Shown piece after piece: positions 5,937-15,726 of a DNA stretch of 63,711 nt. The notes below the pieces were generated by a model. The model was not told where the DNA came from. It did not search any database and saw only the letters and a list, made by a program, of their open reading frames with translations. Every line of letters begins with the position of its first letter. Position 1 is the first letter of the stretch. Source of the stretch: Candidatus Aenigmatarchaeota archaeon (lineage in GTDB: Archaea > EX4484-52). The DNA lies in contig JAGLPV010000005.1 in NCBI GenBank assembly GCA_023137195.1, positions 1 to 63,711 on the forward strand, in the 5' to 3' direction. A program made the position numbers and the translations under genes.

Positions 5937-7154
5937 TTACTTATCAGCAATAATCTCAATCATATCCTTGTCTTTTAAGACATAATCCTTTCCTATGACC
6001 TGCTTTGTTTTCACATTGACCGCACGGATAAATTTCTCCCCAAAATCAGTATGAATCTTGAATGCAAAATCAAGGGCTGTAGAGTCTCTCTTCATTAAAA
6101 ATACATCGGGCAGAACATTGCCTTTTTTGTCGCAAAGTGTTTTTGTCCCGGCAGGATAGACACAGATGTAGTCAAGCTTGTCAAATACAGCATAATTCAA
6201 TATATTCAAAACACCTGTTGAGTCAAAGACATTCATTATGTCTTTTATCTTGTCCAGCGCCTGTTTTTGTTCGGAGGACAGTAAAGAGATTTTGTCTTCC
6301 TTTATTTTGAAGTCAGAGTTACCATATAAATAATCAACAATTCCTGCTTTCTGGGCATTCCTTAAAGCAAGTTCTCCTTCTGCAAAAATAGGAACAACCC
6401 TGCTATCGGTTGCAGATTGAAGTTCTTTTAATTTTTCTTTTGTCTTTTCGATGCCGTATTTTCCTATAAGTTTGTCTATCTTATTTGCGCCGATGATTAT
6501 AGGCTTGGTCTTTTTTCTTGCTTCTATTACGAACTGGTCTATCTGATCATCTGTCCATTCAATGAGATTATCGCTAAAACCCAACCGTTCATATATCTCC
6601 ATCGTATCTTCTTCTTTTAGGTTGATATTTGACAATTGCTTAGTCAATGCTTCAATTCCTTTTTCTTTTTGCATATGCGCTGTCCTTACAAATTTTCTCC
6701 AGTTTTTTTTGATAATCCCTATCAACCATAAATCTATTTCCTCTTCCAGAAATTTTATGTCATTTACTGGGTTGTGAGAGCCCATTTCTACGCTGTCTCC
6801 TTTTTCATTTGTGCTTCCTGAGACATCTACTATGTGGATTAGAGCATCGCAGAATATTAAATCATTCAAGAATTGGTTTCCCATCCCTTTGCCCTCGTGA
6901 GCTCCGGGAACTAAACCGGCGACATCTACCAGTTCTATTGGGATATATCTGTAGCCGTCTGTGCAAAAGCCTGTTCTTGGGTTGCATTGTTTTTCCACTT
7001 CTTTGCAGACGCATTTTATTCTGGCATATCCTGCACCGACATTGGCTTTGATTGTGGTGAAAGGGAAATTCTGGATATCTACATCTTTTAGGGTTGATGC
7101 TTTGAAGAATGTGCTTTTGCCTACATTTGGTTTTCCAACTACGCCAATTTTCAT
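5937..7154 (-). CDS. ychF: YchF/OLA1-related archaeal translation-associated GTPase (Obg family, TGS domain)
   Basis: GKPNVGKS, FPFTT, DVAGL, NKID, C-terminal TGS (A..IHTD); start MKIGVVG at 7154. Confidence 0.92.
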   Translation of the reverse strand: MKIGVVGKPNVGKSTFFKASTLKDVDIQNFPFTTIKANVGAGYARIKCVCKEVEKQCNPRTGFCTDGYRYIPIELVDVAGLVPGAHEGKGMGNQFLNDLIFCDALIHIVDVSGSTNEKGDSVEMGSHNPVNDIKFLEEEIDLWLIGIIKKNWRKFVRTAHMQKEKGIEALTKQLSNINLKEEDTMEIYERLGFSDNLIEWTDDQIDQFVIEARKKTKPIIIGANKIDKLIGKYGIEKTKEKLKELQSATDSRVVPIFAEGELALRNAQKAGIVDYLYGNSDFKIKEDKISLLSSEQKQALDKIKDIMNVFDSTGVLNILNYAVFDKLDYICVYPAGTKTLCDKKGNVLPDVFLMKRDSTALDFAFKIHTDFGEKFIRAVNVKTKQVIGKDYVLKDKDMIEIIADK

Positions 7155-10694: not shown

Positions 10695-11198
10695 ATGACA
10701 TGGGATGTATTTATTTGTCACGCAAGTGAAGATAAAGGTTCTATCGCAAAACCACTTGCAGATAAACTAAAGGATAACGATTTAGAAGTATGGTATGATG
10801 AATTTACTCTTAAATTAGGTGACAAATTAAGAAGGAGTATAGATAATGGTCTCAAAGAATCAAAATATGGTATTGTTATACTGAGTGAATCATTTTTTAC
10901 AAAAGAATGACCACAAACCGAATTAGATGGTTTAGTTTCTCTCGAGAAAAAAATAATACCTATTTGGCATAATCTAGAATATCAAGATATTGTAAATTAT
11001 TCCCCTATGCTTGCAGATAGATTAGCCGTAAAAACTCAAAGCGGATTAGATAATGTAGTTAAAAAAATACTAGAACTATTTGATACAAACCACACAGAAA
11101 GACATAAAAGTTCATCTAATAAAAAAAATGAAAGTAATAATCCAAATCATAATGGGAAATTACTATATGGAAGAAAATTAAAAGGAAGGAAGTTATAA
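10695..11198 (+). pseudogene. TIR-domain protein interrupted by an in-frame TGA (10908-10910)
   Basis: WDVFICHASEDK...VWYDEF; the frame continues after the TGA as PQTELDGL...IIPIWH, so the TGA sits at the W of the usual WPQ.ELD motif. Confidence 0.8.
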
Positions 11199-11199
11199 T

Positions 11200-11391
11200 A
11201 TGGATAATTATCAAGAAACAAAATACGTAAATTGTCCTAATTGCGGAAAGATTATAGAAGTAATCAGTCCTAGAGTGAACAAAAATGTATCAAAAGTAAT
11301 AGCATACACGTCAGACCACGTTGCTCATGAGAATACGCAGACCGTATGTTCAAATTGCCAATATAAGTGCTATATTAGTTGGTATTATTAA
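11200..11391 (+). CDS. Small zinc-ribbon protein
   Basis: CPNCG...CSNC; starts 1 nt after the TIR frame ends. Confidence 0.6.
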   Translation: MDNYQETKYVNCPNCGKIIEVISPRVNKNVSKVIAYTSDHVAHENTQTVCSNCQYKCYISWYY

Positions 11392-11495
11392 TTCATAAAA
11401 TATTTTTCCTGTGGGTTCCGTGCATTCTGTGGATTAATCATGTGGTTTGTCAAAAAGCAAGAATAATTATATAAAATTAAAAATTTAATCACCTC

Positions 11496-12614
11496 ATGAA
11501 ATTAAATATAGAAAACATAAAATCCATGAAAAACAAGGAAAAAATAAGCATGCTTACTGCTTATGATTTTTCAACAGCAGGAGTAATGGACGGCACAGTT
11601 GACATGATTCTTGTAGGAGACAGCTTAGGGATGGTTGTCTATGGCGATGACAACACTTTGAATGTAACCATGCAGGACATGATAAGACCAACACAGGCAG
11701 TAAAAAGAGCTGTCAAAAAATCCATAATAATAGGAGACATGCCAGCCAATAGTTATAATAACAAGACAGAAGCAGTAGAAAATGCAAAATCATTAATCAA
11801 AGCCGGTGCAGATTGTGTCAAGATAGAGAATCAGCATGAAATGGCAGAGGCAATAGTAAACACAGGCATAGAAGTAATAGGACATGTCGGTTTGACCCCC
11901 CAGACAATAACAGACTACCGAATGCAGGGAAAGGATGAAGAAAGCGCAAACAGGATATTTCAGGAAGCAAGAGCTTTGGAAAAAGCAGGTTGTTTTGCCA
12001 TAGTTTTAGAGTGCATCCCTGCTGATTTGGCAAAAAAAATAACAACTGAACTAAAAATAATTACTATTGGAATAGGCGCAGGATTGGACTGCGATGGTCA
12101 GGTTCTAGTAAGCCATGATGTCCTGGGTCTATTCGAAAAAATCAAGCCGGATTTTGCAAAAACCTATGTTAATCTTTCAGAGCAGATGAAAACTGCATTT
12201 ATAGAATACAACCAAAATGTTAAGGAAGGAGTAGTCAAAAGCACAGGCACTAATTTTACTCAAATGCAGAGGCTGATGTTTAAGTCAAAAATACATCGCG
12301 CAACAGCTACAGATGCTAATTTAGATTATGAAGGCAGCATAACTATTGACTCAGAACTGATGAAAAAAGCAAATATTGTCCCGGGAGAACAGGTTCATGT
12401 ACTCAACATAGACAATGGAGAAAGAATCGAGACGTACACAATAGAAGGCGAACCCAACTCAGGTTGTATATGCATTAATGGTGCAGCAGCCCATAAATTC
12501 AAAAAAGGAGAAAAAATCATCATCATCTCTTATGTTCTCGTCGATGAAGACAAAATAAATAAATTTAAACCAAAGGTAGTTCTTGTTGATGAAAACAACA
12601 AAGAAATAATATGA
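11496..12614 (+). CDS. panB-panD: Fusion of ketopantoate hydroxymethyltransferase (PanB) and aspartate 1-decarboxylase (PanD)
   Basis: PanB: [26 protein letters not shown]. In-frame PanD from 12264: [29 protein letters not shown]. Confidence 0.92.
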
Positions 12615-13840
12615 TTCTTAAAAATAAAACAATTGTCCTGGGAATTTCAAGCAGTATTGCCACATACAAATCTCTTGATCTAATAAAGCAATTCAAAAAA
12701 AAAGGCGCAGATGTCATTGTCATTATGACAGACAATGCCACAAAACTGGTCAATCCAGATGAATTTGAACAGGCAAGTGGAAATAAAGTTTTTCTTAAAC
12801 AATTTGCGCCAAATGTCGACTTCAGGGACTACCTGAAAAAAGATGCAAAAATAAACCATATTTCCTTAGCAGATAGGGCAGACTTATTTTTAATCTGCCC
12901 ATGCACCGCCAACACCATCAGTAAACTCGCCTGTGGCATTGCAGACAACCTGCTTTGCACCTCTGTCATGGCAACCAATGCACCTGTGATATTATGTCCT
13001 GCAATGAATGTAAAGATGTGGTATAACCCAACAATACAGGAAAATATAAGGAAACTAACAATAAATGGCTATGAAATTGTCGAACCCGAAGAAGGTATTT
13101 TAGCCTGCGGTTACAAAGGCATGGGAAGACTGGCAGGATTTGAAAAAATAATTGAGCAAACAACTTTGACTTTAACCAGATCCAATGACCTGAAAAACAA
13201 AAAAATCCTTGTAACTGCCGGAGCAACTGTCGAAGACATAGACGCAGTAAGAGTCATAACCAATAAAAGCTCAGGCAAGACAGGTGCCTACATCGCCCGG
13301 GAAGCCGCCAAAAGAGGAGCTAAAGTCACCCTGGTAAGAGGATACAATTCCGTTGAACCCATGTATTTTGGCATAAAAGATATTATCATAAAGGACACAG
13401 ATGACTTATTCAACAAAATAAAAGAAAATATACAAGACACAGACATAATGATTCACACAGCCGCTGTCTCAGACTACACTCTCACCAATAAAAAAGAAGA
13501 AAAAATCAAAAGCACCAACAAACAACTGTCCTTAGAATTAAAACCCACAGTCAAGATTTTAGATAAAATAAAAGAAATAAAAAAAGACATATTCCTTGTC
13601 GGCTTCAAAGCAGAATGCAACATAGACACAGATGTTTTGATAGAAAGAAGTTACAAACGACTAAAAGAGGCAAATGCAGACATAATGGTCGCAAATGACA
13701 TCGGCAAAAAAAACTGCGGTTTCGACGTAGAAACCAATGAAGTCCTAATCATAGATAAAAATAAAAAAATAAAACATGTTAAATTAACACTCAAAAGAAA
13801 CATAGCAAAAGAACTTTTGGATTACATATGCAAATCATAA
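12611..13840 (+). CDS. coaBC: Bifunctional phosphopantothenoylcysteine decarboxylase/synthase
   Basis: [43 protein letters not shown]. Confidence 0.95.
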
Positions 13841-14667
13841 ATACAGTAGAGGAAATGCAAAAATTTTCAGACCTGGCAAGGGAAGAAAAAAAGACAATCG
13901 GTCTTGTTCCAACGATGGGCTATCTGCACGAAGGTCACTTGAGTCTCATCAAAAGAGCAGGAAAAGAATGCGATATTGTTATTGTGAGTATATATGTTAA
14001 TCCCACGCAGTTTGGACCAAATGAGGATTTATCCAAATATCCGCATGATTTCCAAAGAGACAAAACCATTTGCATAGAGAATAACGTTAACGCAATTTTT
14101 TGCCCGACAGACGATTCAATGTATCAACAAGGATACCAGACCTTTGTCAATGTAGAAAACCTGACTAAATCCTTATGCGGAAAATCAAGACCGACCCATT
14201 TTAAAGGAGTTACAACAATAGTCTCCAAACTATTCAATTGCACAAAACCACATAAAGCATATTTTGGACAGAAAGACTACCAGCAGACCAGAGTAATAAA
14301 ACAGATGACAAGAGATCTCAACTACAATGTAGATATCATCGTATGTCCCATAATACGCGAAAAAGATGGTCTGGCAATGAGTTCCAGGAACAGATACTTA
14401 AATGAAGAAGAAAGAAAATCGGCGCTTGTCCTGTCAAGATCATTAGACCTTGCAAAGAAATTGATAGATAAAGGAGAAACAAATCCAGAAAAAATACAGA
14501 GAGAAATGGTAAAGCTGATTGAATCAGAAAACTCGACAAGAATAGATTACATAGAACTGGTCGATGTAGATAATCTAACGCCAAAAGACAGGATAGAAGG
14601 AAAAATACTGATAGCCTTGGCAGTTTTTGTCGGCAAGACGAGACTTATTGATAATTTATTAGTCTAA
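13828..14667 (+). CDS. panC: Pantoate--beta-alanine ligase (bacterial-type pantothenate synthetase)
   Basis: VPTMGYLHEGH, VNPTQF, RPTHF.GV, FGQKD.QQ, GLAMSSRN, RLIDN. Confidence 0.96.
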   Translation: MQIINTVEEMQKFSDLAREEKKTIGLVPTMGYLHEGHLSLIKRAGKECDIVIVSIYVNPTQFGPNEDLSKYPHDFQRDKTICIENNVNAIFCPTDDSMYQQGYQTFVNVENLTKSLCGKSRPTHFKGVTTIVSKLFNCTKPHKAYFGQKDYQQTRVIKQMTRDLNYNVDIIVCPIIREKDGLAMSSRNRYLNEEERKSALVLSRSLDLAKKLIDKGETNPEKIQREMVKLIESENSTRIDYIELVDVDNLTPKDRIEGKILIALAVFVGKTRLIDNLLV

Positions 14668-14688: not shown

Positions 14689-15726
14689 TCAGATTGAACC
14701 AAATATCATTCCTACAATCGTTGAAAAAAACACAACCAATATTATATAAACTATTGTTTGCTTATTTCCCAATATTTTTCTTATGACCAAAAGGCTCGGC
14801 AAACTTAAGCTTGGACCTGCCAATAATAATGCCAAAGCCGGACCTTTTCCCATTCCCATTCTCATCAATTCTCCTATAATCGGGACTTCTGTAAGGGTCG
14901 CAAAATACATAAATGCTCCAAAAATCGAAGCAACAAAATTAGATGTTAAACTATTACCTCCAAGATAAGTCCGGACAATTTCCCCGGGAAGTAAAAAACT
15001 AATTATTCCTGCTATAAATACACCTATCAACAAATATGGAGTTATTAACTTTGTAATATTCCAAGTTTCTCTCATCCATTCCATCTCATCTTTCTTCGTA
15101 AATTTTAATTTCAGCAAAACCAGCAATAGACCAATCAATACTCCAAAAAGTAGTATCTTTAACTCAAAAGCAATTTGAAATCCATTGACAATCAATAACC
15201 CTATGAGGAGTGCAAAAAATAATGAAATGGTTGTTTTTGACAGGTGTTGTTCTGCTTTTAAATTCAAGAACATATCTTCGTTTTCCATTTCTTTTTTTCG
15301 GAATAAAAAATGCATTATCAGACCAATGATTATTGATAGAAAAATAGCGGCAACCGCTCTTGCCATACCTATATCAAAACCCAATACTCTTGCTGTATAG
15401 ATGATTGCAAGCAGATTAATTGCAGGTCCTGAAAAAAGGAAAGTTATAGCAGGACCCAAACCCGCACCTCTTTTTTTAATGCCTGCAAACAAGGGCAGGA
15501 TTGTGCATGAACAAACCGCCAGCAGACATCCTGAAACAGCAGCAACAGAGTAAGAAATGTGTTTTTTGGTTTTCGGACCTAAATATTTTAAAACAGAATC
15601 TTTTTTAAGAAAAACTGCAATCGCTCCCGCTATGAAAAATGCCGGAATCAAACACGTTAAGACATGTGCCGATAAATACTCGCTTAAAGCATAAAATCCT
15701 GCAAAAAATAAATCTGTTATAATCAT
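14689..15726 (-). CDS. ArsP/DUF318-family permease
   Basis: LAVCSCTILPLF, FL..GPAIN, YFATLTEVP, L..PSLSLP. Confidence 0.9.
   Translation of the reverse strand: MIITDLFFAGFYALSEYLSAHVLTCLIPAFFIAGAIAVFLKKDSVLKYLGPKTKKHISYSVAAVSGCLLAVCSCTILPLFAGIKKRGAGLGPAITFLFSGPAINLLAIIYTARVLGFDIGMARAVAAIFLSIIIGLIMHFLFRKKEMENEDMFLNLKAEQHLSKTTISLFFALLIGLLIVNGFQIAFELKILLFGVLIGLLLVLLKLKFTKKDEMEWMRETWNITKLITPYLLIGVFIAGIISFLLPGEIVRTYLGGNSLTSNFVASIFGAFMYFATLTEVPIIGELMRMGMGKGPALALLLAGPSLSLPSLLVIRKILGNKQTIVYIILVVFFSTIVGMIFGSI

Follow-up and report, generated by a model that had tools for sequence, protein, structure and literature searches.

The open reading frame panBD, located in a 63,711-nucleotide stretch of contig JAGLPV010000005.1 from a Candidatus Aenigmatarchaeota archaeon (the whole stretch is referred to here as the window), is a genuine and rare single-ORF fusion of two ordinary enzymes, ketopantoate hydroxymethyltransferase (PanB) and pyruvoyl aspartate 1-decarboxylase (PanD). 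The ORF and its domains, the catalytic residues, the conservation across species, the loss of an internal start, the anatomy of the join and its rarity are all observed directly. On this basis there is a strong probability that panBD is a genuine bifunctional pantothenate-precursor enzyme, derived from two abutting genes, most likely by loss of the panB stop codon. The coordinates of the fusion, its parts and the neighboring features are collected in Table 1.

Table 1. Coordinates of panBD, its parts and adjacent features in the window
Feature	Position	Strand	Details
A+T-rich TATA-like stretch (aattatataaaatt)	11465..11478	+	About 20-30 nt before the panBD ATG; read directly from the sequence
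panBD fusion ORF	11496..12614	+	372 aa, coordinates including the stop; precursor of 41.0 kDa
PanB part	11496..12260	+	Residues 1-255; Pfam, 1m3u alignment, length comparison
Tether	12228..12263	+	Residues 245-256; the C-terminal tail of native PanB in degenerate form, with one residue added
CAA (Gln256), putative former stop codon	12261..12263	+	Position corresponds to the stop of standalone PanBs
PanD part	12264..12611	+	Residues 257-372; profiles, 2c45 alignment
Gly280-Ser281 codons, predicted self-cleavage site and pyruvoyl precursor	12333..12338	+	Alignment
coaBC (dfp)	12611..13840	+	Start overlaps the panBD stop (ATGA); profile matches
panC, bacterial-type pantoate-beta-alanine ligase	13828..14667	+	Overlaps the coaBC end by 13 nt

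The frame opens with an ATG and contains zero internal stops. Pfam PF02548 (PanB) matches residues 3-245 with 310 bits (cut-off, 28.7), PF02261 (PanD) matches residues 257-369 with 167 bits (cut-off, 25) over positions 1-113 of the 115-position profile, and the NCBIfam equivalogs TIGR00222 (panB) and TIGR00223 (panD) score 278 bits (cut-off, 207.55) and 141 bits (cut-off, 106), respectively. Pfam, NCBIfam and the codon positions thus agree with the original prediction of one ORF holding PanB together with a complete PanD and its G|S site (the predicted scissile bond, Gly280|Ser281, at 12335/12336). In the host genome (G000), panBD was the sole panB match and the sole panD match. This is a metagenome-assembled DPANN genome whose 57 contigs total 1.42 Mb, with a completeness of 85%.

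The PanB part is 255 residues long, which equals the length of the nearest standalone PanBs, and in comparison with standalone DPANN PanBs it is full-length, with 62-70% identity. Against the solved PanB structures (E. coli 1m3u and M. tuberculosis 1oy0) it matches with an E value of 1e-51, and both the catalytic Glu and the residues that bind the metal are retained. In the alignment with 1m3u, residues D42/S43, D81, K109/E111, H130, and E172 of panBD match the catalytic and Mg2+-binding residues D45/S46, D84, K112/E114, H136, and E181 of E. coli PanB, and the active-site and Mg2+-ligand columns are invariant or nearly so over 48 PanB rows. The PanD part aligns without gaps to positions 1-115 of M. 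tuberculosis PanD (2c45) and is 60-69% identical to bacterial standalone PanDs (M. tuberculosis 2c45; E. coli 1aw8/1ppy), with which it has the G24-S25 pair and the active-site residues in common. PanD residues K9, H11, Y22, G24, S25, R54, T57, Y58, and N72 are all retained (fusion residues 265-328), and the catalytic and processing columns are invariant or nearly so over 40 PanD rows.

The phylum is represented by 42 species genomes belonging to a single order (the class and phylum searches gave the same 42 as the order search). PanB is limited within it to the genus of the window, where it is found in three of the four genomes, always in one frame with PanD. In genomes G002 and G003, the orthologous frames extend over 377 and 394 aa uninterrupted by a stop, and they are 70-72% identical to panBD. 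The identical panBD protein is encoded on four contigs (NCBI, ENA, and Logan assemblies), accompanied by a 95% variant and the two 70% orthologues; P0001, P0002, and P0274 are fused frames from other sources. The original prediction stood to be overturned by a stop or frameshift in the linker, and at the assembly level there is none in the three species and several independent assemblies. That panB and panD are really two genes, the stop or frameshift between them having been erased by a sequencing or assembly error, would accord with the fragmented metagenome assembly of the host (57 contigs) and with the close DPANN relatives that carry panB and panD as separate, adjacent genes. We consider such an error most implausible and reject it, because (i) the same continuous frame is kept in three species with differing junction sequences, and in independent assemblies; (ii) G003 has CTG (Leu) at the codon corresponding to PanD Met1, so that PanD there can arise only as part of the fusion; and (iii) identity at the junction is 0/12 while the domains on both sides are conserved.

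The same codon also bears on how PanD is made. The NCBI/nr record for the contig of the window holds a 116-aa PanD-only protein (P0272; window positions 12264-12614), which falls in the same 90% cluster, and ATG at the position of codon 257 is retained in two of the three species; both would suit a scheme in which PanD is produced mainly as a separate protein by internal initiation at Met257, the fused chain being incidental. This is very unlikely, since G003 has CTG at that codon, since the PanB part does not end in a stop and hence every PanB chain carries PanD, and since, by eye, no obvious ribosome-binding motif is seen ahead of codon 257, nor anything TATA-like at a distance of about 25-30 nt. 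Records of the 372-aa protein exist for other contigs, and the orthologue RLG14517.1, from a 'Candidatus Nanohaloarchaeota' MAG, is labelled "hypothetical protein". Judging from these entries and the PanD-only record, public databases mis-annotate or under-annotate the fusion.

The way in which the two enzymes are joined points to the plain loss of a stop between two genes that abutted. The closest standalone PanBs, with a length of 255 aa, end in ...VKEGKFPTDEYSFH, and the "linker" of panBD aligns column for column with the C-terminal tail of these proteins. In contrast to the 255-aa PanBs of Woesearchaeota/Nanoarchaeia, panBD has no stop after residue 255; at the stop position there is one extra residue, and residue 1 of PanD comes next. 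The extra residue is Gln (CAA) in the window; G003 has Asn (AAC) there and G002 has Lys (AAA). As PanB (255), one residue and PanD (116) add up to 372, no linker has been inserted. The short linker of the original prediction was therefore right in its residues, which are as written there, but not in being an added spacer, since it aligns with the native PanB C-terminal tail. An inserted, designed linker was likewise rejected, the junction consisting of the native PanB tail, one residue and PanD Met1. Whereas the C-terminal motif G-K-F-P-x-x-E-x-S-F-H is conserved in standalone PanBs, in panBD it has decayed to a freely evolving tether: tether identity among the three species is 0/12, compared with 71-73% for the PanB core and 70-74% for PanD, and the frame stays open throughout.

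The codons CAA and AAA are each a single substitution away from TAA. Taken with the lengths of the aligned proteins, which are the only basis for reading this position as a former stop, the most likely origin of panBD is the conversion of the stop codon of a panB abutting the panD start into a sense codon, in the lineage ancestral to a single DPANN genus. A comparable arrangement is seen in a woesearchaeote (L027; RIFCSPHIGHO2_02_FULL_36_13), where the panB TAA is followed by a 1-nt spacer and the panD ATG; this locus shares with panBD the order panB-panD, a nearby coaBC and 53% identity, but it is unfused, with panD in another frame. In another DPANN relative (L026), panB is followed by one unrelated ORF and then by panD-coaBC-PoK-PPS. 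The genome and metagenome locus scans yielded few relatives (3 and 5 loci), and no directly ancestral unfused panB-panD DNA with a 0-nt spacer was found among them. The PanB of L027 (positions 5992-6726, beside panD) is only 244 aa long and does not have the conserved F-P-x-x-E-x-x-F-H tail found in most PanBs, its last 11 residues being absent; from this sequence, the C-terminal tail seems to be dispensable or variable among DPANN PanBs.

PanD enzymes cleave themselves to form a pyruvoyl enzyme and are tetramers. What can be said of panBD with regard to cleavage, enzyme activity, oligomeric state and selective advantage is inferred, the processing from its family. A full PanB (255 residues), one residue and a full PanD would be translated as one 41-kDa chain, in which the PanB part would convert 2-oxoisovalerate and methylene-tetrahydrofolate to ketopantoate. 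The PanD part would self-cleave at Gly280|Ser281, giving a 24-residue beta chain that remains on PanB (computed mass of PanB plus beta chain, 30.8 kDa) and, freed from the covalent link, an alpha chain of 92 residues (10.2 kDa) that bears a pyruvoyl group at its N terminus. That the beta chain stays on PanB, as had been proposed, would follow if PanD self-processes according to the established chemistry of its family. Unlike in standalone PanD, the N terminus of the decarboxylase is not free in panBD, and the predicted small chain has 280 residues instead of 24. The alpha chain would remain bound non-covalently to PanB-beta, because the beta strands belong to the same barrel fold, and the PanD part would then convert aspartate to beta-alanine. 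Ketopantoate would be reduced, probably by IlvC, and joined to beta-alanine by PanC, encoded two genes downstream.

PanD self-processing is slow or helper-dependent (PanZ/PanM) in some gammaproteobacteria (PMC3496974, PMC3398536). This would leave room, in a general way and with nothing specific to panBD, for a PanD module that is catalytically dead or purely regulatory, such as an unprocessed domain modulating PanB. The likelihood of such a module is close to nil: all catalytic and processing residues are retained, the PanD part is conserved to the same degree as the PanB core, and it is the sole PanD in the genome, for which reasons a dead domain was rejected.

The genes panBD, coaBC, and panC form an overlapping operon in the window. 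Upstream of it, the TATA-like stretch could be a putative archaeal promoter serving a transcript with a short or absent leader. Just before panBD (positions 10695-11391), a 71-aa ORF matches positions 1-65 of the 122-position TIR_2 profile, i.e., the first half of TIR only, followed by two 63-aa ORFs, one of them with a weak zinc-ribbon match; by its sequence, the first of these ORFs may represent a broken or split TIR gene. On the other side of the operon, a predicted permease of the ArsP_1 family (345 aa; 14689-15726, minus strand) is oriented convergently with panC and faces its end.

The pair coaBC-panC does not come after the fusion gene in either G002 or G003. Bacterial-type PanC is present in the host genome and in G003 but was not found in G002, and the genus has no PPS. 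Searches of the host genome, which is 85% complete, yielded neither PoK/PPS nor a type I or III pantothenate kinase (type II and the atypical archaeal PanK lay outside the search), nor PanE, the ApbA match being a 6-phosphogluconate dehydrogenase. Since PanE and a type I/III pantothenate kinase were not found, gaps are left in the pathway as reconstructed from this incomplete genome, and the absence of PanE is also the reason for assigning ketopantoate reduction to IlvC, which is encoded on contig C28 of the host genome. Most of the 42 genomes of the phylum have neither panB nor panD, while in the sister genus (g2; L005 and L008) a standalone PanD is encoded within a cluster of panD, PoK and PPS, and both PanB and PanC are absent. 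In a mostly auxotrophic DPANN phylum, one genus appears to be capable of pantothenate synthesis through PanB, PanD and PanC of bacterial type, in contrast to its sister genus, which has PanD with the archaeal PoK/PPS route and no PanB.

The AlphaFold2 monomer model (48-row alignment; mean pLDDT, 82.6; pTM, 0.62) shows the TIM barrel of PanB and the barrel of PanD, both with confidence, with residues 248-256 at a pLDDT below 50 and no confident packing of the domains. As modelled, the two domains are connected by a flexible, disordered tether with no fixed packing. PanD bearing 17-residue N-terminal tags has been crystallized (143-aa chains in the PDB), and this, together with the frequent PanB-PanE fusions, indicates that both termini accept extensions.

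PanB is a decamer, and the chain counts of PDB entries (10 for PanB; 8, i.e., two tetramers, for PanD) fit the published decamer and tetramer. With a tether of 12 residues, the mismatch between decamer and tetramer symmetry might hinder one of the two assemblies. A more elaborate possibility, taken up from the original prediction, is that PanD tetramers, tethered through their beta chains, cross-link PanB decamers into a cage, lattice, or metabolon in which the synthesis of pantothenate would be concentrated. The chain counts, the shortness of the tether (only about 12 residues), the maintenance of the fusion across species at 70% identity and the independent appearance of the reversed fusion are all consistent with such an assembly. 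On the other hand, in the AlphaFold2 monomer (pTM, 0.62) the domains do not touch with any confidence, the tether is free of sequence constraint (0/12 identity), the reversed fusions, with their other order and linkers of 30-70 aa, argue against one specific geometry, no substrate is handed over between PanB and PanD, and PanC lies outside the fusion. We regard a higher-order assembly as unlikely, and its stricter form, in which the 10-versus-4 mismatch forces a defined particle or lattice, e.g., two decamers bridged by five tetramers, as quite improbable; if true, a minimal archaeon would possess a factory for vitamin B5 precursors that cleaves and assembles itself.

Substrate channelling was rejected, the PanB and PanD reactions not being consecutive, and none would be expected, because the reactions belong to separate branches. 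The benefit of panBD as a bifunctional enzyme is likely to lie not in channelling but in the fixed 1:1 ratio at which a compact genome would express the two enzymes. PanB and PanD are both textbook enzymes, so no new chemistry is involved, and the new part is the domain architecture; two ordinary enzymes have been fused and no new kind of machine is revealed. The gene is a clean natural example of fusion via stop-codon loss in which an old protein tail is recycled as a linker. It would also provide two natural experiments, one on a self-cleaving pyruvoyl zymogen whose small chain is a 31-kDa enzyme and one on the coexistence of a decamer and a tetramer in one chain.

The fusion had been expected to be uncommon, and the order PanB-PanD is indeed confined to one genus in the databases searched: among about 5.8 billion protein clusters, it occurs only in P0001, P0002, and P0003/P0274, all from the genus of the window. 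A search of 1.84 billion representatives returned no PanB-PanD representative; what it did return was a fragment of PanD-PanB type (P0258) together with fusions of PanB to PanE. This agrees with rarity, but the search is not a full census, as panBD itself is not listed, its 50% cluster apparently being represented by another protein. The ESM Atlas gave no usable match for either fusion. No description of a PanB/PanD fusion was found in the literature searched, where a "panD-panB" match proved to be a Wolbachia operon rather than a fusion. The architecture is thus neither widespread nor characterized as far as these databases and this literature extend. Elsewhere, PanD occurs after PanC in candidate fusions of 409 and 715 aa (P0287 and P0281), and the Pfam domain lists of three proteins of 512-588 aa (P0279, P0284, and P0299) suggest a combination of PanD with FAD_binding_2 (PF00890, L-aspartate-oxidase-like).

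To conclude, panBD can be set against several other fusions of pantothenate enzymes. The reversed PanD-PanB fusions, found in at least five clusters (P0083, P0110, P0292, P0294, and P0298; 436-448 aa; GC-rich; one on an 892-kb contig), hold the same two enzymes in one chain, so the pairing recurs; since they have the opposite order, linkers of 30-70 aa and an identity of about 44-50%, they are of independent origin. In these proteins, cleavage would set free the beta peptide of 24 residues, whereas the alpha chain with its pyruvoyl group would keep its covalent link to PanB. PanB takes C-terminal partners in the frequent PanB-PanE fusions (600-770 aa), and PanD takes N-terminal partners in PanC-PanD (P0287). 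PanB-PanE joins consecutive steps, whereas PanB-PanD joins two separate branches; PanB-PanE, PanC-PanD, and CoaBC nevertheless resemble panBD in that enzymes of one vitamin pathway are carried in one chain.
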